64,000 nt of DNA from a virus: the UHGV virus genome UHGV-1356548. The stretch is one strand, 5' to 3'. Shown piece by piece: positions 28,506 to 62,422 of the stretch. Under the pieces are notes generated by a model. The model had not been told where the DNA came from. It saw nothing but the letters and a program-made list of their open reading frames with translations, and made no database searches. Both the position numbers and the translations under genes were made by a program. Every line of letters begins with the position of its first letter. Positions within the stretch are counted from its first letter, which is position 1.

Positions 28506-28694
28506 ATGAACAACCCGGTAGCAAAGAACTGTAATAAGTTCAACAAGTCTGCAATTCACACTGACAGGAAAAAGAGCTGGTCTCCTGACATTGACGAGGA
28601 GCTTGAGAGTTACTTTGAAGACCTGGTCACTAATGCAGATGAGGTTGCGATTAAAGAATACGCAGACAGGAAGGATAAGGCCGGAATCTGTTGA
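28506..28694 (+). CDS. hypothetical protein
   Basis: Start trimmed to ATG 28506 (RBS GAGGAG) to avoid overlap with the upstream stop; acidic small protein. Confidence 0.3.
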   Translation: MNNPVAKNCNKFNKSAIHTDRKKSWSPDIDEELESYFEDLVTNADEVAIKEYADRKDKAGIC

Positions 28695-28719
28695 CAAAAA
28701 TAGTGTTACCTGATAAGAT
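28691..28719 (+). promoter_or_regulatory. sigma70-like promoter with extended -10
   Basis: TTGACA, 17-bp spacer ending TGA, TAAGAT; upstream of ORF 28771. Confidence 0.5.
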
Positions 28720-28770
28720 CTGCAATATGATGTGATGCAATTTTAACTTACGAGGTCTACAGGTAATGCT

Positions 28771-29013
28771 ATGTTTAAGGTTAAGCTCGTTTTTCGTTCC
28801 ATGAATGAGGATTATTTAGAAGATGAAGGTGAATTTCGTGCACTGGATGATGCAATAGATTTTGCCAACGACTTAGCTTGTATGAATACGGGTTATGGGC
28901 TATGCTGTTGGGATGGTGGTGTTCAGATCGGTGATAGCAAGATCTTCTACTTCTACCCTGAGCCTGATAACAAACAAATTAAGTATGTTTTATTTATTTG
29001 TGCTTTACAATGA
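28771..29013 (+). CDS. hypothetical protein
   Basis: 80-aa ORF downstream of promoter. Confidence 0.35.
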   Translation: MFKVKLVFRSMNEDYLEDEGEFRALDDAIDFANDLACMNTGYGLCCWDGGVQIGDSKIFYFYPEPDNKQIKYVLFICALQ

Positions 29014-29300
29014 GGTTGTTTTCGTGTATCATGATGAATATCCAATTTAAAGATGAATTTGATGGCTTTATCTCCGGATGCTTTGAAACAGGGTTCGGAG
29101 AAGGCTGAGTTCCCCTTAGAGGGCTTGATAGTGCACCACACTTAAAATGGTAGGGGCAGCCAGCACATGACGATGTGACCCCAGCCAACCTGTAATAAGG
29201 TCGAGCCAAAGTGCGGTAATGGGCTCTGGTAACCCACTTGTTGGGTCTTTCTGGTCCAGGACGCTGGACAAGTCGCAGGGAATACCACCCTGCGGCGAAC

Positions 29301-29329
29301 TTGACAATCAGTATTTGCTATGATAAAAT
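29301..29329 (+). promoter_or_regulatory. sigma70-like promoter with extended -10
   Basis: TTGACA (29301-29306), 17-bp spacer ending TGA, TAAAAT (29324-29329); followed by GGAGGA RBS and ATG 29358. Confidence 0.55.
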
Positions 29330-29357
29330 CCACCTATCACGTGATAATGGAGGAAAC

Positions 29358-29696
29358 ATGGCGGATACAACTAAAAAGCGTCGCCGTAGAGGCAGACCTC
29401 TGAAAGAGGAGTCCAACGCCATTCAGCTAGAGAAGAACATCCTTGATATGAAGGAATCTTTTATAGCGATGGTTCCAGAAGCTCACAAAGTTTTAAGAGA
29501 GCTGATGTTGGACCCGAAAACCAAACAAAATATTCGTCAAAGCATTGCAGAGTATGTTCTTGATAAGGCAGACCGAATGCAGGAAGAATATGATGAGATG
29601 TTTGGTGAAGAGGAAGAGGTGGTAGTAGAAGAGGCTGAAAAACCAGCACCTTTTATGCCATTTACCACAGAAATACAACCTGTTAGCAATAGCTAA
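29358..29696 (+). CDS. small basic/acidic protein with AT-hook-like motif
   Basis: Start at ATG 29358 (MADTTKKRRRRGRPLK...); RGRP AT-hook-like N-terminus and acidic C-terminal tail; the longer ORF-track start at 29238 lies upstream of the promoter. Confidence 0.4.
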   Translation: MADTTKKRRRRGRPLKEESNAIQLEKNILDMKESFIAMVPEAHKVLRELMLDPKTKQNIRQSIAEYVLDKADRMQEEYDEMFGEEEEVVVEEAEKPAPFMPFTTEIQPVSNS

Positions 29697-29705
29697 AATA
29701 TTTTC

Positions 29706-29734
29706 TTGACAAACTTTGCTTAACAGTGTAATAT
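29706..29734 (+). promoter_or_regulatory. sigma70-like promoter of tRNA cluster
   Basis: TTGACA (29706-29711), 17-bp spacer, TAATAT (29729-29734), about 60 bp upstream of the first tRNA. Confidence 0.5.
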
Positions 29735-29792
29735 TGTAAACATGGTCTCCCACCTTTTCTGGCGGCTAAGGTGTAAAAGAAAGCCACCCAGT

Positions 29793-29867
29793 GCCCTGTT
29801 AGCTTAGTGGATAAAGCAGCGGCCTTCTAAGCCGTTGACACTGGTTCGAGTCCAGTACGGGGTGCCA
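29793..29867 (+). tRNA. tRNA-Arg (anticodon UCU)
   Basis: Cloverleaf by hand: acceptor GCCCTGT/ACGGGGT, D-arm GCTT...AAGC, anticodon loop CTTCTAA, T-loop TTCGAGT, encoded CCA. Confidence 0.75.
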
Positions 29868-29871
29868 AATT

Positions 29872-29958
29872 GGGGAGTTATCCCGTAGGGGTAGCGGTGT
29901 AGACTGTAAATCTATTGTCATTGCGACTCGGGTGGTTCGACTCCACCACTCCCCACCA
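29872..29958 (+). tRNA. tRNA-Tyr (anticodon GUA), class II
   Basis: Acceptor GGGGAGT/ACTCCCC, anticodon loop CTGTAAA, long variable arm resembling E. coli tRNA-Tyr, T-loop TTCGACT, encoded CCA. Confidence 0.8.
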
Positions 29959-30072
29959 AATTTATAGTTTTAAATGCATAAATCATACAGATAATGGCAT
30001 TGATATTTATCGTCGTTTATACTAGTCACTAACTGCTCGAAAATCAGTGTCATTATCAGTATTGTTTATAAA

Positions 30073-30163
30073 TGAGGGTAGGGAGCAATGGTGCTCAAGC
30101 GGTCTTGAAAACCGTCCCGTTGAGGATGACTTGATGATGGTTCGATTCCATTACCCTCAGCCA
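30073..30163 (+). tRNA. tRNA-Ser (anticodon UGA), class II
   Basis: Acceptor TGAGGGT/ACCCTCA, anticodon arm GCGGT-CTTGAAA-ACCGT, long variable arm, T-loop TTCGATT, encoded CCA; 5' boundary +/-1 nt. Confidence 0.7.
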
Positions 30164-30260
30164 TATTGTTGACCTTGTAATTAAGCGAAAGCCGGAAGCA
30201 GAACCGGATTATCAAATGTTACAGTCGTCATCGCCGACTAGCAACATGGTCAACATACTG

Positions 30261-30359
30261 AGCTAGGTAAGCCCTTTGGCAAGGGCGAGGATTTTTAATC
30301 CTGAAAATAGACGAGGTAGTCGTTGAATACATAGGTGGTTCGATTCCATCACCTAGCAC
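30261..30359 (+). tRNA. atypical tRNA-like gene, Lys-type anticodon loop (UUU), oversized variable region
   Basis: Perfect 7-bp acceptor GCTAGGT/ACCTAGC, D-arm GCCC-TTTGGCAA-GGGC, anticodon arm AGGA-TTTTTAA-TCCT, T-arm GGTGG-TTCGATT-CCATC, but 32 nt (with its own GACGA-GGTAG-TCGTT hairpin) between anticodon and T arms; 3' end is CCT not CCA. Confidence 0.4.
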
Positions 30360-30364
30360 CTTTT

Positions 30365-30440
30365 TGCTGATGTAGCACAATTGGTAGTGCAATTGATTTG
30401 TAATCAATAGGTTGCAGGTTCAAGTCCTGCCATCAGCACC
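30365..30440 (+). tRNA. tRNA-Thr (anticodon UGU)
   Basis: Acceptor GCTGATG/CATCAGC, anticodon arm ATTGA-TTTGTAA-TCAAT, T-loop TTCAAGT, encoded CCA. Confidence 0.85.
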
Positions 30441-30441
30441 A

Positions 30442-30516
30442 TGGCCCTGTAGCTGGAAGGTTCAAGCAAGCGACTCATAATCGCCAGACGGTGGTTCAAT
30501 TCCACCCAGGGCCACC
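30442..30516 (+). tRNA. tRNA-Met (anticodon CAU; elongator or Ile-lysidine type)
   Basis: Acceptor GGCCCTG/CAGGGCC with G1-C72 pair, anticodon arm GCGA-CTCATAA-TCGC, T-loop TTCAATT, encoded CCA. Confidence 0.8.
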
Positions 30517-30527
30517 AAATAATAAAT

Positions 30528-30604
30528 ACTCCGCGTAGCTCAGCTTGGTAGAGCGCCTGATTTGGGATCAGGAGGTCGAGTGTTCGAATCACTCCGTGGA
30601 GACC
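30528..30604 (+). tRNA. tRNA-Pro (anticodon UGG)
   Basis: Acceptor CTCCGCG/CGTGGAG with the C1-G72 pair typical of bacterial tRNA-Pro, D-arm GCTC...GAGC, anticodon arm CCTGA-TTTGGGA-TCAGG, T-loop TTCGAAT, encoded CCA. Confidence 0.85.
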
Positions 30605-30650
30605 ACTTTCAGTTATACTTTAAACATATACAAACAAAAGGAACCTTTAA

Positions 30651-30921
30651 AATGTATACACTTAAAATTGTAGAGCGTGTAAATCCAACCCATACCGTAG
30701 ATTTTCGTGACGATTTCAATCCTCTGGCTGTAAATCTTCGAGAGTCATATCATGAACTCAGCTGCGATGCAGTGGTGGTCTTTTTTGAAGACAACTCTGA
30801 AGGGGCGGTAGCTTGTGTTGTTGATAGTGAGCAGAAGTTTTATATTTACAGAGATGTAGATGCATACTTGATGAATGAAAATGCAGTTACTGTTAGAATC
30901 ATCCACCGAGTGCCTCGATAA
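30651..30921 (+). CDS. hypothetical protein
   Basis: Start trimmed to ATG 30651 (MYTLKIVERV) because the longer ORF overlaps tRNA-Pro. Confidence 0.4.
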
Positions 30922-30972
30922 GTATTAGTCTCCTTTTAGTTAGTTTCGATCTATTTAGGTTACTCAATTTTA

Positions 30973-31010
30973 ACCCGCCCCGTTAGCTGTATAGCTGCGG
31001 GGTTTTTTCG
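30973..31010 (+). terminator. rho-independent terminator
   Basis: CCCCG...AGCTGTATAGCT...CGGGG hairpin followed by TTTTTT. Confidence 0.55.
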
Positions 31011-31026
31011 TTTCTGGAGCCTTAAA

Positions 31027-31425
31027 ATGATTTCAGTTTTAACATGGCTGAGCAGGTATAGAGGGATCATAAAAGGTTTAGTTTTTGCAGCTGCGATAGG
31101 TACAGCTTATCTTGGGGCCGTGTATTGGTTTAACTCTAAGCTTAATGATGCCTACCAAGAAGGTGTGTCAGCAACAGAGTTAAAGTGGGAACGGATCCTT
31201 GATCAGCAACAAAAGCAGGCCGACAAAATTAAAATGGGCCACGCAGAGGAGGTTAAAAACCTTGAAAAATCCCTTTCTGATCTACAGGATAAATTAAATA
31301 TGGCTGAGAAGGCAGGTAAAGAAAAGCAGATTATTTACCTCCAGTCACCTGAGGGTAAGAAGTCAACACTCCCTGATCAGCTTATAGATATTTATAATGA
31401 GAGTATTAATCAGGAGGGTAGATGA
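31027..31425 (+). CDS. i-spanin (Rz-like)
   Basis: N-terminal transmembrane helix (GIIKGLVFAAAIGTAYLGAVYWF) then charged coiled-coil-like periplasmic domain; ATGA overlap with the downstream lipoprotein gene. Confidence 0.6.
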   Translation: MISVLTWLSRYRGIIKGLVFAAAIGTAYLGAVYWFNSKLNDAYQEGVSATELKWERILDQQQKQADKIKMGHAEEVKNLEKSLSDLQDKLNMAEKAGKEKQIIYLQSPEGKKSTLPDQLIDIYNESINQEGR

Positions 31426-31709
31426 GAGTTGCTACACTGTTTATTGTGTGCTTGTTATTATGTGGGTGTGCAACCAGCGTTGAGAGAGAATACAAGATTG
31501 ACCCTCCGGATGTAGGAAGGTTGATTGTTAAACCCCCGGAAGGTGCCATGAAACCACCTGCTAAAGCTATGCCTTTGAAGAAAGGTGCGCCAGATGCAGT
31601 GAATTCTGGCATTATGAGGGATAATAATCTGTCTTGTAGCAATGATAGAGCTAAATTGATCATTTTGCAAGACTATATTAGAACACTGTTTCCAAAGGAG
31701 AGAGGTTAA
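31422..31709 (+). CDS. o-spanin (Rz1-like outer-membrane lipoprotein)
   Basis: Signal peptide with lipobox-like LLLCGCA, proline-rich mature region (PPDVG...KPPEGAMKPPAKAMP). Confidence 0.6.
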   Translation: MRVATLFIVCLLLCGCATSVEREYKIDPPDVGRLIVKPPEGAMKPPAKAMPLKKGAPDAVNSGIMRDNNLSCSNDRAKLIILQDYIRTLFPKERG

Positions 31710-33256
31710 TGTCTAAGATTTACGGACCGTGTTCTGAAAAGCAGAAGATGATCCTAGAAAACGATGCAGATATTTTGGTAATCGGCGGTGCCGCAGGGTC
31801 TGGCAAGTCGTTCCTCTTGCAGTTGATGCCACTTAAAATTATTGATGACCCCCACAGCTCTGTGGTTATGTTCCGAAGAACAACCCCACAGTTGGAAGGT
31901 GAGGGTGGACTATGGCCTAAAGCAGTAGCTATTTACAGTGATCTGCCTGAAAACATTAAGCCAAAGTTCAGAGAGAAGGATCATAAGTTCATTTTTCCAC
32001 GGTTTGATCCGAACACTGGTAAGTGGGATAGAAGCAAAAAGGGAGCTGTTGTAAAATACTGCCATATGGAGTATGTACAAGATAAGCTTAACCATCAGGG
32101 GCTTGAGTACACCATGGTTTGCTTCGATGAGGGCACGCAGTTCGAATGGGAGCAGATAGACTATCTGATGTCTCGTCTGCGATCTCAGTCAAAGTATCCA
32201 TCAAGAATGGTTATCAGCTGTAACCCCGATTCAGAACACATGCTTGCCAAACTGGTTAGATGGTGGTTGGACGATGAAGGGTATCCAGATCCGGAGAAAT
32301 GCGGTAAGAAAAGATATTTTATCCGACGCGACGGTGAATTTATCTGGGGAGACTCTAAAGAAGAGTTGATAGAGAAATACACCACGGTTAACGGACTTGG
32401 CGTAGAGATCAAGCCAAGACCGTTGTCATTCTCGTTCATAGGCGCAACAATATTCGATAATCCTGTCTGTTTGAGAGACAACCCAGAATACCTTGCTTTC
32501 CTCGAAGGTCTACCAGAGCTGGAAAAAGCTCAGCTTCTCCATGGTAACTGGTTTGCAAAGCCTGAGGGTGCAAACTATTTTCAAAGATCTTTCCTTCGTG
32601 ATGCCGATAGAGTACCTCTTGGGTCAGTATCTTGCAGGGCATGGGATAAGGCAGGAACCGAGAGAACTTCCGGTAATAAATTTCCTGACTTTACTGCCAG
32701 TATTAAGGTAAGTAAAGATAGCGACGGCTTTTATTACCTGTCCGGTGATTATTGTCCTGAGAACGTGGATGACGGGAGGTATTCCACAGGTCTGGAAGGC
32801 AAGTTCTGTAAAAAGGCTGGTGAACGAGATGTGATCATCAGGAAACAGGCGCAGTTCGATGGTGATGATTGCATAATCGTCTTCTCTGTGGACCCAGGGC
32901 AGGCAGGTAAGAGTGAGTTCTTAACCTCCTCCAGATCCTTGCTTGCCGAAGGGTTCAGGGTTGAAGAAGACCCAATGCCTTCCAACAAGTCTAAACTGAC
33001 AAGGTTCTCACCTTTTGCCAATCTTGCCCAACAAGGAATGGTGAGGATTGTAAAATCCAGTTTCCATCCTGATACTCTGGAAGCATTTCTGACTGAACTT
33101 GAAAAATTCAACGGGGAAAGATCAACATTTAACAGAAAAGACGACTGGGCCGACTGTGTAGCTTCTGCGATTAATTTCCTAGAGAAAGAGGAGGTAGCAC
33201 TTCCTTGTGTGATTCCATCAATCTCATCACCTTCTATGTTCAAGCGTTTTATCTAA
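31709..33256 (+). CDS. terminase large subunit
   Basis: 515 aa; Walker A ADILVIGGAAGSGKSFLL near N-terminus; acidic nuclease-type C-terminal half; precedes portal-sized ORF. Confidence 0.8.
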   Translation: MSKIYGPCSEKQKMILENDADILVIGGAAGSGKSFLLQLMPLKIIDDPHSSVVMFRRTTPQLEGEGGLWPKAVAIYSDLPENIKPKFREKDHKFIFPRFDPNTGKWDRSKKGAVVKYCHMEYVQDKLNHQGLEYTMVCFDEGTQFEWEQIDYLMSRLRSQSKYPSRMVISCNPDSEHMLAKLVRWWLDDEGYPDPEKCGKKRYFIRRDGEFIWGDSKEELIEKYTTVNGLGVEIKPRPLSFSFIGATIFDNPVCLRDNPEYLAFLEGLPELEKAQLLHGNWFAKPEGANYFQRSFLRDADRVPLGSVSCRAWDKAGTERTSGNKFPDFTASIKVSKDSDGFYYLSGDYCPENVDDGRYSTGLEGKFCKKAGERDVIIRKQAQFDGDDCIIVFSVDPGQAGKSEFLTSSRSLLAEGFRVEEDPMPSNKSKLTRFSPFANLAQQGMVRIVKSSFHPDTLEAFLTELEKFNGERSTFNRKDDWADCVASAINFLEKEEVALPCVIPSISSPSMFKRFI

Positions 33257-33259
33257 GTG

Positions 33260-33288
33260 TTGCCAATCTTAATTAGATGTGGTACAAT
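33260..33288 (+). promoter_or_regulatory. sigma70-like promoter with extended -10
   Basis: TTGCCA, 17-bp spacer ending TGG, TACAAT; followed by a hairpin (33307-33324) in the 5' leader of the portal gene. Confidence 0.4.
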
Positions 33289-33356
33289 AAAGTAATTGGA
33301 GATACTAGCCCTCTGACGAGGGCTATTTTGTTATACTGTTTTGAGGGGTAAAGCTT

Positions 33357-34913
33357 GTGTCCAAAAAGAACCGCAGGAAACACAACGCCACAGCCAAAAC
33401 TGTGAATAAATCTGGGAACGCAGGCGCACCAACTCATAATGTTCGTATGAGTGAGATCGGTTCTGGCGCACTTTCCCAAATTATGGCAGAATCGCAATCT
33501 ATGATGGTTGAGGAATTGCGTTGGCCTCAGCTGATTGCCACAGTGGAGACTATGAAATGTGATTCCACAGTTGCTACTGCCTTAGATACAAAATATGTTT
33601 TCATCACGAAAGCATTCAATGATTTTAAGATCCTTTATAATGTTAAAAGTGAAGACTCTAAGAAAGCTGCCGAGCTTATAGAGTATTCTTTGCGTAATTT
33701 GGCAAACCAACAAACTCTTCGAGATATTGCAAGAAGCGCAGCTACCTTTAACGAGTATGGTTTTTCACTGTTTGAGAAAGTATACCGCAGAGAGAAAGAA
33801 GGTAAATATGCCGGGATGCTTCTTATCGATAAAATTGCATTCCGGCCTCAGGCCAGCCTGTCCAGATCAGAGCCGTTTGTTTTTGATAAGAATAGCAGAA
33901 CACTGACAGGTATTTATCAGTCACCTAATGCATTTCTAAACACTCAGAATGCACGCTGGGCTGGACCTCTTGCTGCAATGCCTTCAAAAGGCTTTAATGA
34001 GCCTGAAATTTTCATCCCTGCTAAAAAGCTTATGCTCATGACCCTGTCAGGAACAGAATCTAACCCTGCAGGTGTGTCACCTATGATAGGTTGCTACAGA
34101 TCTTTCCGTGAGAAAGTTCTGATTGAAAACCTTGAGGTTGTTGGCTGTTCCAAAGACCTTGGTGGTGTGCTTGAGCTGAAAATTCCTTCCAATATTTTGA
34201 ACAAGGCCAGCATTGACCCGAATTCAATGGAAGGGAGAATGGTTGCAGACCTTATGCTTGACGCAGCAAACGCCCATAGTGGTGAGCAAAGTTTCTTTAT
34301 ACTTCCGTCTGATAGAGATAAGTCTGGTAAAGAGCTTTACTCCATGACCCTGAAGGGGGTTGACGGTATGGGTAAGCAGTATTCCACTAAAGATTTGATT
34401 GATGCCCGTAAGAAGGCGATTCTTGACCGTTTCGGTGCTGGCTTTATTAACCTCGGTAACGATAACGTTGGATCCTTCTCTCTGTCTGAGTCAAAACAGT
34501 CTATCCATGGTCATTTTGTTCAGCGTGATATAGATATTATCACTGAAGCCTTCAATAAGGATCTTATTCCACAGCTTCTGGCATTGAATGGTATCATCCT
34601 TGAAGATGATGATATGCCTAAACTGAAACCTGGTCTGATTGAAGAAGTGGATATGGAGAGCTTCTCCAAGTTTGTCCAGAGGATCGGTGCTGTAGGTTAC
34701 TTGCCAAAAACTCCTGCAGTAATTAATAAGATTCTTGAAGTAGGCGGGTTTGATGAAAGATTTGACGAGGACATGGATCAGGAAGAGCTGATGAAGCTCT
34801 TGGGCCAGGACATCAGTAGAGCTGGTGATGGAATGGCTGCAGGATCCACTGGCAACGGCACTTCTAAGATATCATCAACCAGAGATAATTCCATATCCAA
34901 CATGGAAAATTAA
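33357..34913 (+). CDS. portal protein (candidate)
   Basis: 518-aa ORF immediately after terminase, GTG start; assignment by position and size only. Confidence 0.5.
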   Translation: MSKKNRRKHNATAKTVNKSGNAGAPTHNVRMSEIGSGALSQIMAESQSMMVEELRWPQLIATVETMKCDSTVATALDTKYVFITKAFNDFKILYNVKSEDSKKAAELIEYSLRNLANQQTLRDIARSAATFNEYGFSLFEKVYRREKEGKYAGMLLIDKIAFRPQASLSRSEPFVFDKNSRTLTGIYQSPNAFLNTQNARWAGPLAAMPSKGFNEPEIFIPAKKLMLMTLSGTESNPAGVSPMIGCYRSFREKVLIENLEVVGCSKDLGGVLELKIPSNILNKASIDPNSMEGRMVADLMLDAANAHSGEQSFFILPSDRDKSGKELYSMTLKGVDGMGKQYSTKDLIDARKKAILDRFGAGFINLGNDNVGSFSLSESKQSIHGHFVQRDIDIITEAFNKDLIPQLLALNGIILEDDDMPKLKPGLIEEVDMESFSKFVQRIGAVGYLPKTPAVINKILEVGGFDERFDEDMDQEELMKLLGQDISRAGDGMAAGSTGNGTSKISSTRDNSISNMEN

Positions 34914-34980
34914 AAATTATCAACACAGGGGGTTGCAAAACCTCCTTTGGCGTGATAAAATAATCCACATGGGGAATAAG

Positions 34981-35400
34981 ATGCCACAGGAAGAAATGAT
35001 TTCCTACGAAATCATCTACGAGCCTGACACTAAAGATGCTCACGGTGAGTGGATGAGTAAAGACACCATCAAAAAGGCTAAAGATAACTGGGACGCAGCA
35101 TACGCTGCAGGCCTAGTTTCTGAAAACCTTTTCCACTTGACCTCTACAGATGCTTTCACTATTGAAAAGACGTGGATTCAAGAAGAGTTTGATGTTGTAG
35201 TAATTGGCACTGAGCAGGTCATCAAGGCTGGCTCTTGGGTTGCTAAAGTTAAATACAATAATCCTGAACTATGGGAAGCTAAGAAGGCTGGCATTGTCGG
35301 TGGCCTAAGCATTCAGGCAACAGGTAATGTTGATGAAGAAACTGGTGAAATTACCAACGTAAACTTCGGGATCAGTGTTGTAGAAGAGGGCAATGAATAA
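34981..35400 (+). CDS. hypothetical head-morphogenesis protein
   Basis: Start at ATG 34981 with GGGGA RBS; between portal and scaffold. Confidence 0.3.
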   Translation: MPQEEMISYEIIYEPDTKDAHGEWMSKDTIKKAKDNWDAAYAAGLVSENLFHLTSTDAFTIEKTWIQEEFDVVVIGTEQVIKAGSWVAKVKYNNPELWEAKKAGIVGGLSIQATGNVDEETGEITNVNFGISVVEEGNE

Positions 35401-36377: not shown

Positions 36378-36397
36378 GACATTAACGGGGGAAATAA

Positions 36398-36787: not shown

Positions 36788-36835
36788 GCCCTAAATTGTT
36801 CGGGAAAATATTTAAGTTTTATTTTGGAGAAATAA

Positions 36836-37846: not shown

Positions 37847-37870
37847 TCACTAAGGTGATTCATCCCATAT

Positions 37871-53246: not shown

Positions 53247-53250
53247 CATA

Positions 53251-53272: not shown

Positions 53273-53282
53273 AGGAGAAAGA

Positions 53283-56200
53283 ATGGCTGATATTAAAGTT
53301 GTCAGAATTGAATCTCTTCCTGCCACTACCGCAGTGACAGAGGATGATTACCTGGTTGTTCAACAACCAGACCTGACCCGTCGTGTAAAAATTGGCGATG
53401 TTGTCCATGTTGATGGGACTGTTTCTCATGTAATCTCCTTTAAGGAAGGTGGTAAGTTAAACGGCCCAATGGATTTTGCCTACTTCGAAGAGGAAGACCT
53501 CTACCTACGTTGGAAAGGCGAATTTCCGCACACTGTTCCTGCACTGTCTTCACCGTACTCCGATGGTGGGATCACTGATGCTGCATGGATGGTATATACT
53601 GACCCGTCCTTAAGGGAGGAGCTGGAATCTACCATTGGCGCATCTATGATCATGACAGCCGAAGGGCAGTCTGTCCAGGATGTAATGGATGTTACTGTTC
53701 AGACAGCTAACGATGCCAAAGCACTTGCACAGCGTGTAGATTTTGGTACAGTGCACACTGTAGGCGATGTTATTCACCTTGATAACTTTGTTGGCCCTGC
53801 AGTTATTGAAGAGGGAAGAACTACCAACTACCCTTCTGTAGCAGCTGGTGAAAAATTTCTGAACGGTGTGGTATCTCGTCGTGATACTACAACTGTTGAT
53901 GGTATTTTCCGTGGCGCTACCACCGGAGCCATGTACACCATTGCAGTAACCAACGGTGTAGCAACAACGAAAAGAATAGCACTTCGTGATGAATTTAAAC
54001 GCCTAGAGGCAAACAACCCAACAAGAACAGTTATCCGTGCTGGAGATGATTTAAATACGGCAGGGTACTTGCAGCTTGATGCAACAGGCCGTTGGGGTAT
54101 GTGGAACCAACAAACAGCTTCGTGGCAACCTCTTGCTATAGAGCAAGGCGGCACAGGGGCTAGAGATGCCGCTGGAGTCCGTATCAATATCGGTGCTTTC
54201 TATAAGCAACGTGCAGCCCTTGAGCCAAATTTCAATATCAATAACTTGACTGGTAATCAGGATGGTGTATACTACCAGCCGATGACTGCTTATGCAACTG
54301 AGGCAAATGGTTACCCTGCAGGTTCTGGTGCTGGTCACTTGATTGTCTGGCAGAACAATGCTAACGGCGGTACAGGTTGTCGTCAGGAATACTATCCATT
54401 CTCTAACGTAGATGTTTGGTATTTGAGAACCTATCAGGCCAACACAAATCAGTGGACTGCATGGCAGCCGATGGTCAGACCTCGTAACGATGATACCTTT
54501 AGATCGCACATCGGTCTCGGGTCTAGAAATACCCCTACCTTCGGGCACCTTTACCTATCTCAAAGCACTTCTGAGGTTAAGTCTCCATCAGGTATTCTCC
54601 ATGGGGATAAATACGGCGCTGACGGTGTCCTTGAGCATGGGTATAGGATCTACTCTGAGGTAAGAAACGACAATAAGGCTTGGTTGACAATCCACCTGCA
54701 CAAAGGCGCAAAAGGATCTGAAACTCATAGCTATTTAGGCTTCCGTGAGGATGGGGTCTTAGATTGTCCTAAATATATGCAGGTTGGTGATCTGAACGGT
54801 CAGCTGGCAAACTGGGGACTTGGAGAGTGGATCCGTAGTTCAGGGGCAGAAAGAGGCTTCTGGGGGTCCAAGAAAGCCGCCAAGATGGTTGTCTGGGATG
54901 GCGGTATGGACGAGCAAGGTGAAGGAACGCTTGAATGGGGTGTTTATAACAACCGGAAGGCCAAGTGGGAACCTCTACCTCAAGCCGCAGGTGGCACTGG
55001 GGCTACAACTTTAGCAGATGCTCAGAATCTGTTCAAAGTTCCTATAGCAGCAGGTGTAAAAGACTTCTTAACACTGCCAAGAACCGCAGGGATGGAAGAT
55101 GGGAAATACTACCCAATCATCGTTAGAACAGATCCGTATTACGCCCCTTCGACAGGTACAGATATTACTATAGTCACCAGGTCTTCATCTGGAAATGACC
55201 CTATGAACTGTGCGACCTTACAGTGTCACTATAGAACTGGTGGTTGGACAGACAGAGGAGACTCTTTCTACGGGGTAGTAAATTTCTACCAGAATGAAAA
55301 AGCACTTCTTGGGATGGTTGCTCCAACAAGGGGTAAACAAGAATATGTTGCTTTCTATGCAGAGGCGCGTGCTTTCCCTGTCAGCATATACGCAAGTAGA
55401 AATGTTGTCGAGGTGTTTACCAGGGAGCAAGATTACCAGGTTGGCTCTGTAACAGACAATCAGGACGGTGTTAAGTTCGTTGCACCTCTCCAGTCAGCAG
55501 ATTTGAATCTTGCTGTTCTTGGAGATAATAATACCAACACCAGACCTATTGTTGACTTCAAAGGGACTTCAGGGTTCTACACTGGTGGCGGCACACAGTG
55601 GCACTATATAGGCACTGCTGAACGCTATGCTGTGATGAGCAAAATGAATATGCCAAAAGTCGAGCTATGGGCAGACGGTCTTAACTATTTGTGCTACGGC
55701 AGTCCTAGAAAGGCGTTATTCTCTAATGCAGGCTTCCAGTGTGCATCAGATGGGACAGAGGATCTGACTAACGGTACGTTTACCTCTAAATGCGGTAATG
55801 GTGCTGGTCTCAAAGGACAGGCAGAGTTCAGATCTACTCCAGAGGCTGGTCAAGTTATTGTTCGTGATGTTGTAGGTTCTGCTCACAAATTCTACAACTT
55901 CAACAAAGATGGCACTTTCTCAGCTCCTGGTGGTTTTGTATGCCACACAGGTGCAGACTGGAACAACCAGTTCGGAAATAACAACCCTTCTAAAATAATG
56001 GCTGGTAACGTCAACGGACCTGAAGGTTCCATGGTTGTAGCAGGGTTGTCGGTTGGTTTTTCTGGAAACTACGCTTTCCAGATGGCAGGTCGTTTAGACC
56101 AGCTGTACACTCGTTCCATAGAGCAGGGAAACCACAGAGCGTGGAACAAAGTTATTCAGCACCGTGGTCAAGGGTTGGGAACTAATGACCTTAACGACTA

Positions 56201-57083
56201 CAAAGGGGATAGAGAGGGTTTTTATCACCAAGAGGCCAATGCTCAGGCCACTCCGGAGAGAAACTACCCTTGTGCTCAGGCAGGTACACTTATTGTGTAC
56301 AGGAATTACGCCAACGTGCCTGAGAGCTGTGTGCAGGAATATGTATCATATCTTGGGGAAAAATTCCTGCGTTATGGAACAACAATAGGTAGTGTTTTCA
56401 CATGGGGACCTTGGCAGCAGCTTGGTGGCAAAGGGATCACTTTGAAAACTCAAGGTTCGAATCTTGACCCAGAGTTTATAATCCACACTGGCGGCGGAGC
56501 TACTGTTGGCAACAGTTCCAACATACCTGCTAATACAGGTAGGTTATATTATTGGGGCAATGGTGCAGACCGGAAGAATGTGCTTGAGTTCCAGATAAGT
56601 GATAACTCAACACTCTCCAACTGGGTATTCCATTGCGGGGCCAAGACAGATGAGGCCAAATCAAGATATTTTGCTGTCAATGGTGCAGTAGAATGCACCA
56701 CTGTTAGTCAAAGTTCTGACCGTGACCTGAAGGATAATATCGAGGTCATACCTAACGCTGTAGAAGCTATCCGGAAGATGAAAGGCTATACCTATACTTT
56801 AAAAGAGAATGGTATGCCTTACGCAGGGGTAATTGCTCAAGAAGTTATGGAAGCATTACCAGAAGCGGTTGGGTCTTTCGTGCAAAGGAAAGAGGTTCCA
56901 GGGCCTACTCAAGACGGCACCCCTCTGATGACTGAGGAAAGATTCTATAACGTTGACTATGCAGCTGTAACAGGCTTGCTTGTCCAGGTTTGCAGGGAAC
57001 AGGACGATAAAATAACCGCCCTTGAGGAGCAGGTTAAAAAATTGACAGAGGTTGTTACTGGGTTGCAAGAGAAACTGAAGTAA
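53283..57083 (+). CDS. long tail fiber with C-terminal S74-type intramolecular chaperone (autoproteolytic) domain
   Basis: 1266 aa; C-terminal SDRDLKDNIEV...GVIAQEV...coiled-coil signature of endosialidase/L-shaped-fiber chaperone domains; internal duplicated module (GHLIVWQNNANGGTGCRQEYYPF / GTLIVYRNYANVPESCVQEYVSY). Confidence 0.75.
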   Translation: MADIKVVRIESLPATTAVTEDDYLVVQQPDLTRRVKIGDVVHVDGTVSHVISFKEGGKLNGPMDFAYFEEEDLYLRWKGEFPHTVPALSSPYSDGGITDAAWMVYTDPSLREELESTIGASMIMTAEGQSVQDVMDVTVQTANDAKALAQRVDFGTVHTVGDVIHLDNFVGPAVIEEGRTTNYPSVAAGEKFLNGVVSRRDTTTVDGIFRGATTGAMYTIAVTNGVATTKRIALRDEFKRLEANNPTRTVIRAGDDLNTAGYLQLDATGRWGMWNQQTASWQPLAIEQGGTGARDAAGVRINIGAFYKQRAALEPNFNINNLTGNQDGVYYQPMTAYATEANGYPAGSGAGHLIVWQNNANGGTGCRQEYYPFSNVDVWYLRTYQANTNQWTAWQPMVRPRNDDTFRSHIGLGSRNTPTFGHLYLSQSTSEVKSPSGILHGDKYGADGVLEHGYRIYSEVRNDNKAWLTIHLHKGAKGSETHSYLGFREDGVLDCPKYMQVGDLNGQLANWGLGEWIRSSGAERGFWGSKKAAKMVVWDGGMDEQGEGTLEWGVYNNRKAKWEPLPQAAGGTGATTLADAQNLFKVPIAAGVKDFLTLPRTAGMEDGKYYPIIVRTDPYYAPSTGTDITIVTRSSSGNDPMNCATLQCHYRTGGWTDRGDSFYGVVNFYQNEKALLGMVAPTRGKQEYVAFYAEARAFPVSIYASRNVVEVFTREQDYQVGSVTDNQDGVKFVAPLQSADLNLAVLGDNNTNTRPIVDFKGTSGFYTGGGTQWHYIGTAERYAVMSKMNMPKVELWADGLNYLCYGSPRKALFSNAGFQCASDGTEDLTNGTFTSKCGNGAGLKGQAEFRSTPEAGQVIVRDVVGSAHKFYNFNKDGTFSAPGGFVCHTGADWNNQFGNNNPSKIMAGNVNGPEGSMVVAGLSVGFSGNYAFQMAGRLDQLYTRSIEQGNHRAWNKVIQHRGQGLGTNDLNDYKGDREGFYHQEANAQATPERNYPCAQAGTLIVYRNYANVPESCVQEYVSYLGEKFLRYGTTIGSVFTWGPWQQLGGKGITLKTQGSNLDPEFIIHTGGGATVGNSSNIPANTGRLYYWGNGADRKNVLEFQISDNSTLSNWVFHCGAKTDEAKSRYFAVNGAVECTTVSQSSDRDLKDNIEVIPNAVEAIRKMKGYTYTLKENGMPYAGVIAQEVMEALPEAVGSFVQRKEVPGPTQDGTPLMTEERFYNVDYAAVTGLLVQVCREQDDKITALEEQVKKLTEVVTGLQEKLK

Positions 57084-57090: not shown

Positions 57091-57118
57091 GCCCTCGCTT
57101 CGGCGGGGGCTTTTTGTT
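57091..57118 (+). terminator. rho-independent terminator
   Basis: GCCCTCGC-TTCG-GCGGGGGC hairpin followed by TTTTT. Confidence 0.65.
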
Positions 57119-57122
57119 TGTA

Positions 57123-57151
57123 TTGCGTATTAACTCAAAATCTGGTAAAAT
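57123..57151 (+). promoter_or_regulatory. sigma70-like promoter with extended -10 (TGgTAAAAT)
   Basis: TTGCGT, 17-bp spacer ending TGG, TAAAAT. Confidence 0.5.
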
Positions 57152-57182
57152 AACTATCATGATTGTTTAACCTGGAGGCACA

Positions 57183-57773
57183 ATGTTTTTATGGGAAAGG
57201 CCTAGATACCTTCCAGATATTAGATTGGAGCTGCTGGCAGATATTGTTACGTTTAAAAGTCCGTTTACAGGTAAAACGCAAAAAGTAACCTATGCCACAC
57301 CTAACTGGAAAGGCACTTTGACGGTCTCCAATATCAGCGAGTCACAGTTGCTAGAGCTTAAGAGCTTTGTTGATCAGGTGTATAAAGATGGGAACATCTT
57401 TCTTATTAAAACTTACGGTCACTCTGTAACAGCTAACGAGCCAATCGCCCTTGGGCCTACTGGTAACGACGATTTTTTGAAGACGGTCGGGTGGGAGCCA
57501 AACAGAGACATAGCCAGAGCTGGTGATAAAATATCTGTGAACGATGAGTTGAAAGTGGTAACAGCTCCAGTGCGTAGTGATGGTGTTGGGTCTGCTGTTA
57601 TAGGCATATCTCCAAGACTTAGAAAACCTATTGCCGCAGGGGACACCATGAAGATAATAACTCAATCTCCGAAGGGTAGGTTTCATATCAGAGATATTTA
57701 TAAAATTAAGCAAAAAGTCGATGCTATGCAAAAAGGTGATAATATAGTTATCAACTTCTTTGAGGATTTTTAA
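57183..57773 (+). CDS. minor tail protein (candidate)
   Basis: 196-aa ORF opening the operon that ends with the J-like gene. Confidence 0.35.
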   Translation: MFLWERPRYLPDIRLELLADIVTFKSPFTGKTQKVTYATPNWKGTLTVSNISESQLLELKSFVDQVYKDGNIFLIKTYGHSVTANEPIALGPTGNDDFLKTVGWEPNRDIARAGDKISVNDELKVVTAPVRSDGVGSAVIGISPRLRKPIAAGDTMKIITQSPKGRFHIRDIYKIKQKVDAMQKGDNIVINFFEDF

Positions 57774-57774
57774 G

Positions 57775-58326
57775 ATGATCAGAGCGCCATTAGATAATTT
57801 ATTTCTTGAAAAGCTGGAGCTTGATGGTGTTGAGATCTTAATTGCTGCAAAGCTGGAGCTACCGACAGGAACTGTCAGAGTGTGCTCAGGCACTGGTGTT
57901 GTAGTAATTGAGGGGCAACATTTTATAGGGATAGGTGGATCAGCAACATTAACTGCTGTGTCTGAGAAAGATGCCACCAACTTCGGATCTGTGGTAGCAA
58001 CATTAAACGGGTTTGATCCCAAGTATGTGGGTGATCTGCTGAAGACGGAGTATTCTGGTTGTCGTGCCACGTTGTACATTACCGCTATGGAGAATGGTCT
58101 ACCTGTTACAACTAATGGCTTGTTTGACGGACTTATAACAGATATGGCTATTCAGACAGGTGAGAATAGTGCTTTGTCCATATCCATCTCTTCCATCTTC
58201 AACAGCTGGTTAAGAGGTTTTCCTTATCGGTACACGGAGGAAAGCCACAGCTCAAGAAACGATAATGACAGATTTTTTAAATATGTGGATCAGGTGGCGA
58301 GCCGCCCGATCATTTGGGAGGTTTAA
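57775..58326 (+). CDS. minor tail protein (candidate)
   Basis: Start at ATG 57775 right after the previous stop; 183 aa. Confidence 0.35.
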   Translation: MIRAPLDNLFLEKLELDGVEILIAAKLELPTGTVRVCSGTGVVVIEGQHFIGIGGSATLTAVSEKDATNFGSVVATLNGFDPKYVGDLLKTEYSGCRATLYITAMENGLPVTTNGLFDGLITDMAIQTGENSALSISISSIFNSWLRGFPYRYTEESHSSRNDNDRFFKYVDQVASRPIIWEV

Positions 58327-58751
58327 TGAGCACACACCCTCGTTTAGTGGATTGGCAAGAAAGATTGTGGAGAGTGTTTGACGAAGAGGCCACCATACCT
58401 TTTGAATGGGGATTCCACGATTGCTGCACCTTTGCAGCTAAGTGTGTTGATGCCCAATACGGAACAGATTTTCTTTCTAACTTCGAAGGAACGTATAAAA
58501 CAGAGTTGGAAAGCAAAAGATGGTGCATGCTCCGTTTCAAAACCACACACCTGCCTACTATTTTTGATCTCTTTATGACTCGACTAGATACTCCTAAACA
58601 GGTTCAGCGTGGCGATATTGTTATCTTCGAAGGTCTGAACGGGCTCACCGCTGGTGTGTTCTGGAACAACCAGATTTGGGCGAAAGGTGATAAAGGGGTC
58701 TTTATGTTCGACATGAAAGATTCTATCGTTGTTGATGTCTGGAGGTATTAA
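58326..58751 (+). CDS. minor tail protein (candidate, Cys/His-containing)
   Basis: Start ATG overlapping previous stop (TAATG); WGFHDCCTF segment; 141 aa. Confidence 0.35.
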   Translation: MSTHPRLVDWQERLWRVFDEEATIPFEWGFHDCCTFAAKCVDAQYGTDFLSNFEGTYKTELESKRWCMLRFKTTHLPTIFDLFMTRLDTPKQVQRGDIVIFEGLNGLTAGVFWNNQIWAKGDKGVFMFDMKDSIVVDVWRY

Positions 58752-61700
58752 TGCCAATTGCAATGATTGATAACATCGTTGCTTCTGCAAGATCTTCAAG
58801 TTATGACTGGAACGCATCCAAGGCAGCTCTGGCTGACAGCCTGAACACTGTTACCACCAGAACTCTGGATAAGATTTTTGAGGGCAACAAATCTTACAGA
58901 AGTCAGCAAGATAGACAAAAGCTTCTCAGATCTTCTGCTGCACCCTGCTCTGTAGTGTATGGGAAGACACGCACGTCTGGACTGCTTGCGTTTTTGGAGC
59001 AGGACAGAGACAGAACCCTCCATTGTGCCATTGTTCTTGCTAATCATCCTCTGGAAGGTATAGAGGACATACTCATCGACGGTAATCCTATTTCCTCGTA
59101 TGGAGATCTGGTATCGTGGGAGCTACATAACGACAGAAAAACATCTGATCCTTTCATGGGTACACACTGCCCATCATGGTCACCTGACATGATAGGTAGA
59201 GGGATCAGTTGGCTACGTGCCAGCTTCAGGTTTGACCCTAACAAGTTTCCTTTTGGGTTGCCAAACGTTACACTCGTTAAGGTTGGTAAAAAATGCTATG
59301 ATCCTCGCATCAGTAAAGAGGTGTATACCAATAACGCGGCCTTGGTGATTCTAGACTATTTAAGAACGTACCTTAAATGTCCTGACGAAACCATCAACTG
59401 GGAGTCCTTCAAGGAGGCTGCTAACATATGCGACGAGGCGGTAAAAAACGCAGACGGAACCAGTGAGCGCCGATACACCATTAATGGCGAGTTTGACATG
59501 GACGAGGCTCCGGCAAGCATTATGGCAGAGATGCTGAAAGCTTGTGGCGCAGATCTCAGCTATGTAGCTGGTAAGTATGGTTTGCTGGTTGGTGCATACT
59601 ATGGCCCGGCAACAATGACGCTGAGTGAGGATTGTGTCTGTGGTGAGGTCAAGATCTATCCGGAAGCCTCATTTGACAAAAGATCCAACACAATAACTGG
59701 CAGATTCACTAGTCCGACCAAAGGGTATTCTGAAACAGATTTTCCATCAGTGTTTGTCCCAGAGTGGATAGGGAAGGATGGAGAAAGAAAGATAATCGAT
59801 ATAGACTATCGCTTTGTTACCAGTCCTTATCAAGCTCAACGTGTTTCTGCAATCTTCCTAAGACGTGCCAGAGCTGGCAGGATTATTGAAGTCACCTGCA
59901 ATATGCGAGGTTTCAAATTTAAACCTGGTCGTTACGTTACAATGGACCTCCCAAGTATTGGTATAGTAGGCCAAGAAATGAGAGTTCTTGAATGGGAGTT
60001 TACCAAAAAGGGTGGTGTCAAGGTAAAACTTCGTCAAGATGCTAAAGAGTGGAATGATGCCACAGGGCAACTTCCGGATTCTGGCGATGTAGATATTCCG
60101 ATATCTCCATCTGGTGTAGCTCAACCGCAAAACTTCAGATATTCCGTTCTCCAAGCTGGAGAAGTAACTCACGGTGTTTTGGCTTGGGACAACGTTGGGA
60201 CTTATGCTCAAAACATTGTGCAGGTCAGGAAAAACGGAGAGATTGTCTGGACAGCGCAGACAGTTGAGCAGTTTGTCCGTGTTGAAGGTCTGACTAAAGG
60301 TTCCTACACAGCCACTGTTGTTGCAACATCTTATAAAGGTGGTGTATCTCCAGAAGCATACTGTGAGTTTAACATTCAGGCACCTGAGGCTCCGGTTTCT
60401 GTAGAAGTTAAACAGGGATACTTTGCTATTACCCTGATCCCGCATAGCAGAGCCTTGGCCAGTGTAAGCACCCAATATGACTTTTGGACATCTGGGATGA
60501 CAAGATTGCCAGATACCAGTGATGCAACCGTTACTTCAAAAGCCACTCGTATGGGTGTTGGTTCAACTTGGACATCTGAAGGTCTGCAGAACGATAAGAT
60601 TTATTATTGGTATATCAGGACAACAAATGCTTTTGGTTCATCTGCTTTTGTGGAGTGTGCAGCCCACTGTTACACATCCATAGAAGATCTTATGCCGCAG
60701 ATTGATGCTGAGTTCAAAAAGACAGAGACTTATAAAGAGCTTACCGCCAATCTCGATAATGCAGTCAAGGAAATGGATAAAAATGTTGGTGCAGTCAATG
60801 ACCGTGTTACTAGCATTTTTGAAGAGCTTGGAGATACAATAGAGGGTGTTGTCAGAGAGACGACAGAAAAATTTACAGGGGTTAATGGAGAAATTTCTGC
60901 CCTTAACAGTAAGCTGGTAGCAGCTCAGCAATCCTTTGACGATAAACTTGCAGCAGAGTCTGGTAGGCTTGGGTCACTAATCGAGACAACAAATAGATCA
61001 ACCGTTGATCTTGTTAATCGTAAAACTCAAGCATTGAGTGAGCAAATAACTGCAACTCAAGGTACTCTGCGGGAAGAGTTGAAGAACACTGAGAGCAAAC
61101 TTAACTCCTCTATTCAAGAAACCAACAAGGCAACAACCGACCTGCTAAATAAGACAACGGAAGCTATTAAGCAGGATCTGGTGGCAGCTACAGGGAAGAT
61201 CACCAAGCTGGAAGATGATGTGCAGAAAGAGGTTGCCAATCTGCAAGCATCTATTCAAGAAACTAATAGTACAACAGTTGATCTTGTTAATAATACAGCC
61301 ACAGCGATCCGTCAAGAACTTACCTCTGCAAAACAAGAAATTGTTGACGAAATGGGTAATATTGATGAGCTTAGGGCTACAGTATCTAATACCTCTAAAG
61401 CTGTAACAACACTTGAGGGTAAAATAGATGCTCAGTGGGGGGCTAAGATTCAGGTTGACAGCCATGGTAATAAATATGTGGCAGGTATCCAGCTGGGCAT
61501 GGAGGGGTCTGGAGGACAAGTTCAATCATACTTTATGGTTAGTGCAAACAACTTTGCGGTGTACAACCCTGGTAACGGCACAGCAACCCTTGCTTTCGCA
61601 ATCAAGAATAACCAAGCGTTCTTGAAAGACGCTTTTATAGAGAATGGCACGATCTCCTCTGCCAAGATCGCACAAGAAATTTCGTCAAACAACTACGATA

Positions 61701-62350
61701 GCAACGGGTACCATAACTACGGTTGGTATATTAACAAGAACGGGCACGCCCAATTTATGGATGTGTGGGTGAAAGGTAACATCAACGCCAGTTCTGGTAA
61801 CTTCACAGGGGCAGTTAACGCCACCAGTGGTACCTTCCGTGGTGATGTTTATGCCAATAATGGTAGCTTTAGAGGCACCATAGATGCAACCGGAGGTACC
61901 TTCCGTGGTCGTGTAGAAGCTTCTGTTATCCGTGCTAACCAGTTCGAAGGTGCGATTGTTGCACACAGGACTTACGGAGATTGTGCTCCAGTATATAACT
62001 CCCGGCAAAGGGTTTGCCGTTGGAGGTGGAGATACGTAGATAACGTTTCAGGTCAGGGTAAGAACGTAACATTCTTCTTTAAACTGAACGGTACTCTTGC
62101 CAGCTCCCAACTGAATGCATGGATAGCTGGTCATCAGATCCTTGCTGGCAAGAAGTATTTTAACGACAACAACGGCATGTGTGCGGTAGGGATAACAGGT
62201 CTGGGTGAACAAACTATAGACATTGTTATCGAGATTTACACACCGTGGTCAACGTCGAGCGTGACAGGTGTCACAATCTCCTGTCCCACTGTGATCGTTA
62301 GTCGTTCTAACTCAAGCTTCCAGGGACCTTGGAACGAGTCTCACGACTAA
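58751..62350 (+). CDS. host-specificity / central tail fiber protein, lambda J-like
   Basis: 1199 aa; several blocks align by eye to lambda gpJ (GYFAITLIPH vs GYFQITATPH; IRTTNAFGSSAFVE vs IRSVNTVGKSAFVE; KYVAGIQLGMEG vs HYVAGIGLSMED; YFMVSANNFAVYNPGNG vs QFLVAANRIAFIDPANG); C-terminal about 150 aa diverge. Confidence 0.7.
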   Translation: MPIAMIDNIVASARSSSYDWNASKAALADSLNTVTTRTLDKIFEGNKSYRSQQDRQKLLRSSAAPCSVVYGKTRTSGLLAFLEQDRDRTLHCAIVLANHPLEGIEDILIDGNPISSYGDLVSWELHNDRKTSDPFMGTHCPSWSPDMIGRGISWLRASFRFDPNKFPFGLPNVTLVKVGKKCYDPRISKEVYTNNAALVILDYLRTYLKCPDETINWESFKEAANICDEAVKNADGTSERRYTINGEFDMDEAPASIMAEMLKACGADLSYVAGKYGLLVGAYYGPATMTLSEDCVCGEVKIYPEASFDKRSNTITGRFTSPTKGYSETDFPSVFVPEWIGKDGERKIIDIDYRFVTSPYQAQRVSAIFLRRARAGRIIEVTCNMRGFKFKPGRYVTMDLPSIGIVGQEMRVLEWEFTKKGGVKVKLRQDAKEWNDATGQLPDSGDVDIPISPSGVAQPQNFRYSVLQAGEVTHGVLAWDNVGTYAQNIVQVRKNGEIVWTAQTVEQFVRVEGLTKGSYTATVVATSYKGGVSPEAYCEFNIQAPEAPVSVEVKQGYFAITLIPHSRALASVSTQYDFWTSGMTRLPDTSDATVTSKATRMGVGSTWTSEGLQNDKIYYWYIRTTNAFGSSAFVECAAHCYTSIEDLMPQIDAEFKKTETYKELTANLDNAVKEMDKNVGAVNDRVTSIFEELGDTIEGVVRETTEKFTGVNGEISALNSKLVAAQQSFDDKLAAESGRLGSLIETTNRSTVDLVNRKTQALSEQITATQGTLREELKNTESKLNSSIQETNKATTDLLNKTTEAIKQDLVAATGKITKLEDDVQKEVANLQASIQETNSTTVDLVNNTATAIRQELTSAKQEIVDEMGNIDELRATVSNTSKAVTTLEGKIDAQWGAKIQVDSHGNKYVAGIQLGMEGSGGQVQSYFMVSANNFAVYNPGNGTATLAFAIKNNQAFLKDAFIENGTISSAKIAQEISSNNYDSNGYHNYGWYINKNGHAQFMDVWVKGNINASSGNFTGAVNATSGTFRGDVYANNGSFRGTIDATGGTFRGRVEASVIRANQFEGAIVAHRTYGDCAPVYNSRQRVCRWRWRYVDNVSGQGKNVTFFFKLNGTLASSQLNAWIAGHQILAGKKYFNDNNGMCAVGITGLGEQTIDIVIEIYTPWSTSSVTGVTISCPTVIVSRSNSSFQGPWNESHD

Positions 62351-62359
62351 CCTTTAAAG

Positions 62360-62386
62360 CCCCGCTTCGGCGGGGTTTATTTTTAT
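62360..62386 (+). terminator. rho-independent terminator
   Basis: CCCCGC-TTCG-GCGGGG hairpin followed by TTTATTTTTAT. Confidence 0.7.
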
Positions 62387-62393
62387 GCTCAGA

Positions 62394-62422
62394 TTGACTA
62401 TTGTTACAAAATTTGGTAAAAT
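62394..62422 (+). promoter_or_regulatory. sigma70-like promoter with extended -10 (TGgTAAAAT)
   Basis: TTGACT, 17-bp spacer ending TGG, TAAAAT; followed by GGAGGA RBS and a GTG start at 62456. Confidence 0.5.

Follow-up and report, generated by a model that had tools for sequence, protein, structure and literature searches.

Two sequence classes of putative sigma70-type promoters in a Vequintavirus genome and conservation of the late extended -10 core

Within a 64,000-nucleotide stretch of the virus genome UHGV-1356548 (the window, with positions counted from its first base), ten sigma70-like promoter sequences lie on the + strand between positions 28691 and 62423, most of them at the head of operons that encode the virion. 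These sequences fall into two classes rather than one family, and the class that precedes the structural genes has a sub-consensus of its own, centred on a TG-extended -10 element. We estimate a probability of about 0.6 that the sites are genuine start signals read by the host Escherichia coli sigma70 holoenzyme and divided between these two classes, a reading that is based on sequence comparison. From 28000 to 48000 the window is 100% identical, in reverse orientation, to Escherichia phage I29 (ON286975.1), an E. coli phage that, like rV5, belongs to the genus Vequintavirus (Vequintavirinae). The + strand from approximately 26 to 64 kb carries small open reading frames (ORFs), a tRNA cluster, spanins, terminase and the entire head and tail module, and the - strand of the first 26 kb carries nucleotide-metabolism genes.

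Promoter-like sites in the window

The pattern TTG-N17-TGNTANAAT, which specifies a -35 hexamer, a 17-bp spacer and a TGn-extended -10, is matched eight times in the 64 kb, always on the + strand (29301, 33260, 34933, 39459, 42981, 46220, 57123 and 62394), compared with a mean of 0.27 and a maximum of 2 in 100 dinucleotide-preserving shuffles. An initial annotation of this DNA had proposed at least nine promoters of this kind, and the set is real and non-random, with the omission of the match at 34933 that precedes the prohead protease gene. Seven of the eight positions that it assigned to the pattern are exact matches; the other, 28691, is one base off, with TAAGAT as its -10, and the additional site at 29706 is TTGACA-N17-TAATAT without TG, just as described. 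The notation TTGnnn-N17-TGn used there was loose, the actual layout being TTGnnn-N14-TGn-TAnAAT. The sharing of TGGTAAAAT by four late-operon sites was correctly noted, and the window holds five copies of this word against 0.89 expected, the fifth lying at 3849 on the - strand, within a gene.

All ten sites have TTG at a 17-bp spacer, and nine have the TG at -15/-14, the exception being 29706. The -10 hexamers TAAAAT, TACAAT, TAAGAT and TAATAT all conform to TAnnnT, with A as the second base and T as the last. Every site falls in an annotated intergenic gap and is oriented along the coding strand, with 18-68 nt separating the end of the -10 from the next start codon or tRNA. Plain -35/-10 scans that ignored the TG gave counts near the shuffled expectation (51 sites where 34 were expected, and 34 where 29 were), and because such scans barely exceed chance, what is non-random is the intergenic subset with the TG extension. 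When the late form of the element, TGNTA[AC]AATA, was counted over both strands of the whole I29 genome, 13 matches were found against approximately 5 expected from an analytic Markov calculation; all 13 are on the late-gene strand, and 10 are intergenic in a genome of which only 10.5% is non-coding. The motif observation is confirmed and is statistically solid.

The three leftmost sites carry the perfect TTGACA typical of the putative early/middle class, and they precede small ORFs and the tRNA cluster (rV5 designations of the same sequences, considered below, are given in brackets). At 28691-28719, TTGACA-N14-TGATAAGAT combines the perfect -35 with a TG-extended TAAGAT before the small ORFs at 28771-29108 (P075). 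TTGACA-N14-TGATAAAAT at 29301-29329 is a 'hybrid' type, with both a perfect -35 and an extended -10, and stands before the ORF at 29358-29696 (P074). The TG-less TTGACA-N17-TAATAT at 29706-29734 precedes the cluster of seven tRNAs at 29793-30605 (PtRNA).

The seven remaining sites, all on the + strand, are of the late class. The first, TTGCCA-N14-TGGTACAATA at 33260-33289, lies before the portal gene (33357-34913; P064), with a terminator hairpin in between, and is followed by TTGCAA-N14-TGATAAAATA at 34933-34962, which precedes the operon running from the prohead protease to the major capsid gene (34996-37846) and does not appear in the rV5 table. TTGCTT-N14-TGGTAAAATA at 39459-39488 precedes the operon at 39506-42890, which extends to the tail sheath and tube (P056), and TTGACA-N14-TGGTAAAATA at 42981-43010 precedes the tail chaperone and tape-measure operon at 43053-46177 (P051). 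The baseplate and tail operon at 46282-57083 is preceded by TTGTAA-N14-TGATACAATA at 46220-46249 (P048), the tail genes at 57183-62350 by TTGCGT-N14-TGGTAAAATA at 57123-57152 (P040), and a baseplate gene that starts at 62456 by TTGACT-N14-TGGTAAAATA at 62394-62423 (P036). A ninth late-class sequence of the I29 genome, TTGTAA-N14-TGCTAAAATA, is found outside the window on the - strand of the I29 record (123524-123553), in the early/replication region, upstream of I29_194, I29_193 and a putative endonuclease.

Two promoter classes

For the comparison of late promoters with the rest, the full I29 genome was assembled and the best sigma70-like site was taken from each intergenic gap of at least 45 nt, yielding a late set of structural-module promoters (n = 8, of which 7 are in the window) and a set of other intergenic promoters scoring at least 10 (n = 31). 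The late consensus is TTGnnn-N14-TG(G/A/T)TA(A/C)AATA, narrowing to TG(G/A)TA(A/C)AATA in the seven window sites, with a weak -35 and a third -10 base that is never T. Early/middle promoters elsewhere in the genome follow (A-rich)-TG-TTGACA-N16-18-TAtaaT, most of the other set being preceded by TG and an A-rich stretch. An exact TTGACA is present in 1 of 8 late promoters, all of which keep TTG, and in 22 of 31 others (Fisher p = 0.0045); the spacer is always 17 bp in the late set and 16, 17 or 18 bp in the other. The TG upstream of the -10 is found in 8/8 and 15/31 promoters, respectively (p = 0.012), T at the third -10 base in 0/8 and 21/31 (p = 7e-4), a -10 of TAAAAT or TACAAT in 8/8 and 2/31 (p = 7e-7), and an A directly after the -10 in 8/8 and 14/31 (p = 0.006). 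There are thus two sequence classes rather than one family, and a late sub-consensus is visible.

This outcome bears on two statements of the initial annotation. The first, that late structural operons use host-type promoters, agrees with the bipartite, sigma70-like form of the sequences, since all eight I29 late sites combine TTG at 17 bp, TG and TAnAAT. The second, which denied that any separate late-promoter consensus can be seen, does not stand, because a late subclass, TTGnnn-N14-TGnTA(A/C)AATA, is discernible and Fisher-distinct from the other promoters.

The sites might instead be members of one undifferentiated host-type sigma70 family that carries no late signal, with the timing of expression set by copy number, mRNA stability and the like. 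The pattern sites do fit a single formula, TTG-N17-TGnTAnAAT, the TG is shared by nearly half of the early/middle promoters (the 15 of 31 above), the site at 29301 joins a perfect -35 to TGATAAAAT, and the authors of the rV5 genome paper saw sigma70-like promoters genome-wide (PMC3606486). A single family is nonetheless rather improbable, given that late promoters depart significantly from the rest in the quality of the -35, in the spacer, in the third -10 base and in the base that follows the hexamer, that their core is shared by five Vequintavirinae lineages, and that in Certrevirus the early consensus is a separate one confined to early regions (PMC7344957).

Relation to the rV5 predictions

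Promoters of this group of phages have been predicted before. In the genome of rV5, Kropinski et al. 2013 (Virol J 10:76, PMC3606486) listed 33 promoters resembling the E. coli sigma70 consensus, spread across the whole genome and including 11 with an extended -10, and described a MEME-derived 'putative late promoter', TggTAaAAtA, that occurs eight times upstream of late genes 27-66 and was likened to the T4 late promoter. Table S4 of that paper holds the same sequences as the window, under the names P036, P040, P048, P051, P056, P064, P074, P075 and PtRNA, so that the window sites had already been described, as in silico predictions, for the type phage. Six of the window sites that carry the late motif TggTAaAAtA are sequence-identical to P036, P040, P048, P051, P056 and P064, the site at 34933 being additional, and P048 was misaligned by MEME in the published analysis (PMC3606486). 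Both the rV5 list and the present one consist of promoters predicted from sequence. They differ in that the earlier work made no contrast of -35 quality, spacer or third -10 base and did not address cross-genus conservation (PMC3606486); what is new here is the 34933 site, the quantified contrast between classes and the conservation of the late core in four other lineages. A literature search for the literal motif TGGTAAAAT returned no relevant matches.

Conservation among the Vequintavirinae

The late modules of five phages were compared, namely I29, a Seunavirus (NINP13076), a Mydovirus (Seu621), the unclassified Vequintavirinae phage A7_1 and a Certrevirus (KaOmega), with the tail sheath proteins of the four relatives 52-60% identical to that of I29. 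Over-representation of 8-mers in the whole sequences of the five modules was dominated by coding repeats of the tail fibres, with GGTAAAAT only in 15th place, and the scan was replaced by a count of words in intergenic DNA only. Terminator loops and T tracts aside, the top words in the 63 late-module intergenic gaps were TAAAATA (20 gaps), TGGTAAAAT (11 gaps) and TGATAAAAT (8 gaps). TGnTAnAAT occurs in 27 of the 63 gaps, nearly always 16-43 nt upstream of the start codon, and among these 27 sites the third -10 base is A in 25 and T in none, the base after the -10 (-6) is A in 22, and 19 have a TTG separated from the -10 by 17 bp, the others having T-rich sequences in that position (TTTTAA, TTTTTT, TTTATA).

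Alignment of orthologous sites over the five lineages gives the same picture. At the 34933 site TTGCAAAA and GTGnTAAAATAA are invariant islands, and at the 39459 site G-TTG-TTTTG and TGTGGTAAAATA are, in each case with a diverged spacer. In more distant relatives only 1-2 such sites are found per late module, as in an Aeromonas phage (sheath identity 41%) and in Phapecoctavirus ESCO13 (28%). The late core TGnTAAAAT(A) is conserved, on these comparisons, in four Vequintavirinae lineages besides that of I29 (three genera and one unclassified phage). A conserved extended -10 core together with a -35 that is helpful yet dispensable is the signature of the sigma70 TGn/-10 class.

This conservation also bears on whether the sites might be chance products of A+T-rich intergenic DNA and of terminator T tracts. 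Some features fit such an origin, for plain scans are near the shuffled expectation, several -35 hexamers overlap terminator T tracts, and in A7_1 and KaOmega the -35 reads TTTTTT or TTTTAA. Against it are the eight matches observed where 0.27 were expected, the strict strand bias and intergenic placement, the fixed distance to start codons, and the conservation of the elements, but not of the spacers, across five lineages. Chance is contradicted by both the statistics and the conservation and was rejected as a highly improbable explanation.

Probable recognition by the host polymerase

In sigma70 promoters of the extended type, the TG is contacted by sigma region 3.0 and positions -12/-11 by region 2.4. 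The three elements of the TGn/-10 class, TG, -10 and -35, are assigned to sigma70 regions 3.0, 2.4 and 4 (PMC2988021). Most likely, the host sigma70 holoenzyme initiates at all of the sites described here, with the late ones relying on the extended -10 and having a -35 reduced to TTG. The late promoters share with the E. coli extended -10 class a TG at -15/-14 before TAnnnT, a weak or dispensable -35, and a 17-bp spacer where a -35 is present, and differ from it in the tighter core TGnTA(A/C)AATA, in which the third base is A and not T, and in the TTG that I29 keeps.

Because the late promoters lean on the TGn/-10 element and not on -35 or UP contacts, one of two mechanisms probably governs late expression. 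One would be a phage function that weakens -35- or UP-dependent initiation, as T4 AsiA and the gp39 of Thermus phage P23-45 do; the other would be competition from the much stronger early promoters, together with amplification of the template by replication. The block of -35 recognition by AsiA leaves TGn/-10 promoters unaffected (PMC2988021), and they are likewise immune to gp39, which blocks -35 recognition in a phage whose middle and late promoters are of the extended -10 type (PMC3950348). The resemblance to P23-45 extends to the lack of a phage RNA polymerase and to early and host promoters of the -10/-35 type (PMC3950348), with the differences that I29 late promoters retain a partial -35, and that the gp39 switch of P23-45 has no more than a putative counterpart in I29. 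The other I29 class also has a known counterpart. The Certrevirus early promoter, AAAA-N3/4-TGTTGAC-N17-TATAAT, was reported in the phage CB7 paper as confined to early regions (PMC7344957), and it matches the I29 early/middle class in being A-rich, in TG-TTGACA and a TATAAT-like -10, and in its location in regions of small genes. No late motif was reported in that paper, which describes a class other than the late sites (PMC7344957).

A further possibility is that TGnTAAAATA is an element of a phage late specificity factor, either a divergent sigma- or gp55-like protein or a reprogrammer of the holoenzyme, and that sigma70 alone would use it inefficiently. T4 late promoters have neither a TG nor a -35, and they need gp55, gp33 and the sliding clamp. 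Like the present sites, T4 late promoters (TATAAATA) have an A-rich motif in the -10 region that ends in ATA at -6 and is specific to late structural genes, a resemblance that was noted by Kropinski et al. (PMC3606486). A phage factor would also account for features that exceed the sigma70 consensus, as T never occupies the third -10 position and A is favoured at -6 in five lineages; since sigma70 optimisation leaves these two preferences unexplained, there is room for a phage-specific recognition factor. The late-like copy at I29 123524-123553 lies outside the structural module, before an endonuclease-containing operon, which suggests a regulon marker, and most I29 early proteins are without known function.

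Other observations make such a factor unlikely. TG at -15/-14 and TTG at 17 bp, neither of which T4 late promoters have, are signatures of sigma70 region 3.0 and region 4, and the -35 blocks are conserved among the lineages. For rV5, neither homologues of T4 gp33, gp45 or gp55 nor a phage RNA polymerase or sigma factor were reported (PMC3606486). A Pfam search of 88 hypothetical I29 proteins (20 candidates and 68 further hypothetical proteins of at least 85 amino acids, the latter as 10 concatenated sequences) found no sigma, anti-sigma, gp55, gp33, AsiA or MotA domains, although very divergent homologues could escape such a search; the only matches in these proteins were a weak one to AAA ATPase, below the cutoff, and others to DUF2201/VWA, cREC_REC, T5orf172 and DUF7238. 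No homologue of gp39 or gp76 was detected in I29. A T4-type gp55 late promoter was rejected, because the TG and the -35 are conserved and gp55 and gp33 were not found. It is doubtful, too, that the late core TGnTAAAATA marks a subfamily-wide switch in which a phage factor retargets the sigma70 holoenzyme to these sites and away from UP/TTGACA early promoters; such a factor would have no detectable similarity to AsiA, gp39, gp55 or MotA.

The sole candidate transcription modifier that was found is I29_11, a putative protein of 346 amino acids encoded outside the window (I29 record 6682-7722) and annotated as 'anti-termination protein'. Its best PHROGs match is to an 'HNH endonuclease' family (3e-110), followed by 'decoy of host sigma70' (1e-14) and 'Srd anti-sigma factor' (6e-9). 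I29_11 had no Pfam or PDB match and a negligible NCBIfam match, and searches of neighbouring proteins against NCBIfam and PDB gave nothing meaningful. An Srd-like gp11 is described for rV5 (PMC3606486).

Recognition of both classes by the host holoenzyme is the preferred reading, and several points weigh against it. Optimisation for sigma70 alone would predict neither a strict A at the third -10 base nor the frequent A at -6, and these preferences could mark another recogniser. The set of other promoters was picked by a score that rewards TG and a good -35, so that part of the contrast between classes stems from this selection. The 33260 promoter is separated from its gene by a terminator hairpin, an arrangement that is hard to square with a simple promoter, and the mechanism of the early-to-late switch is pure inference. 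Finally, a literature search for a transcriptome, start sites or expression timing in the Vequintavirinae found none, the sole RNA-seq paper that mentions the Vequintavirus group having studied a Tequintavirus.

Terminators and operon architecture

Each late site heads its own operon, and most are placed directly behind the intrinsic terminator of the previous one. All of the terminator-like elements consist of a hairpin and a T tract on the + strand. One at 37871-37903 follows the major capsid gene (rV5 t060), and one at 42907-42940 closes the sheath/tube operon just before the 42981 promoter (t052). The element at 46188-46215, after the tape-measure gene, adjoins the -35 of the 46220 promoter (t049), and those at 57091-57120 (t041) and 62357-62388 are immediately 5' of the promoters at 57123 and 62394. 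With terminators just before promoters, the structural module is split into at least seven terminator-promoter cassettes.

The arrangement differs at the portal gene, where the intrinsic-terminator-like element that ends the terminase operon (33306-33334; t064ABC) lies downstream of the 33260 promoter. The -10 ends at 33288, the hairpin at 33306-33325 and UAUUUUGUUAU come next, and the portal start codon is at 33357. Because this promoter is inside the termination region of the terminase operon, portal transcripts would need to read through the hairpin at approximately +12 to +40.

Two further hairpins are found in the late module. A strong 14-bp hairpin with a T tract stands right before the tape-measure gene (43790-43833) with no promoter after it. 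The Seunavirus, the Mydovirus, A7_1 and the Certrevirus likewise have a hairpin ahead of the tape-measure gene, and this element may act as an attenuator controlling how much chaperone is made relative to tape-measure protein. The intergenic gap that precedes the tail sheath gene contains a 12-bp hairpin (40968-40994) that lacks a T tract and may have a role in RNA processing or stability; the relatives have a different hairpin at this gap, followed by GTCAATAA.

Other features of the window

Three lone single-base differences from I29 (31063, 62004 and 62102) and a stretch diverged from approximately 63648 leave the promoter sites untouched. Window bases 1-55 equal I29 record 88358-88412 in the orientation opposite to the remaining window, and the two parts meet at a poly(A) run, suggestive of either a rearrangement or an error of assembly. 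Positions 16582-25903 comprise a perfect tandem duplication (period 4661 bp, units starting at 16582 and 21243) that is absent from the deposited I29 record. It contains RNA ligase 1, a cREC_REC-domain protein, a Sir2-like protein and part of DNA ligase, and of the two DNA ligase ORFs the copy met first along the direction of transcription is truncated (380 versus 427 amino acids). The cREC_REC-domain protein, I29_76, is a small protein encoded beside RNA ligase 1 on the - strand (24502-24852 and 19841-20191), with a 'cyclic-phosphate processing receiver' domain (Pfam, 1e-12), and its occurrence with nearby phosphoesterase and kinase-like genes suggests a putative RNA-repair module. A region of 661 nt (27256-27916) is without an annotated gene in the I29 record.

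The tRNA cluster at 29793-30605 comprises seven genes by ARAGORN (Arg, Tyr, Ser, an odd one, Thr, Met and Pro), four of which are annotated in the I29 record. The odd tRNA (30262-30360) is 99 nt long with a 4-base anticodon call, and it has an Rfam tRNA score of 35.5 bits at 30262-30358.

Implications

As a sequence observation, the promoter set adds little beyond the 2013 rV5 paper. Phages of the rV5 type (Vequintavirinae) are in wide use as candidates for therapy and biocontrol, and a distinct late class of extended -10 promoters gives precise targets for 5'-end mapping, for the design of reporter phages, and for a search for the early-to-late switch.

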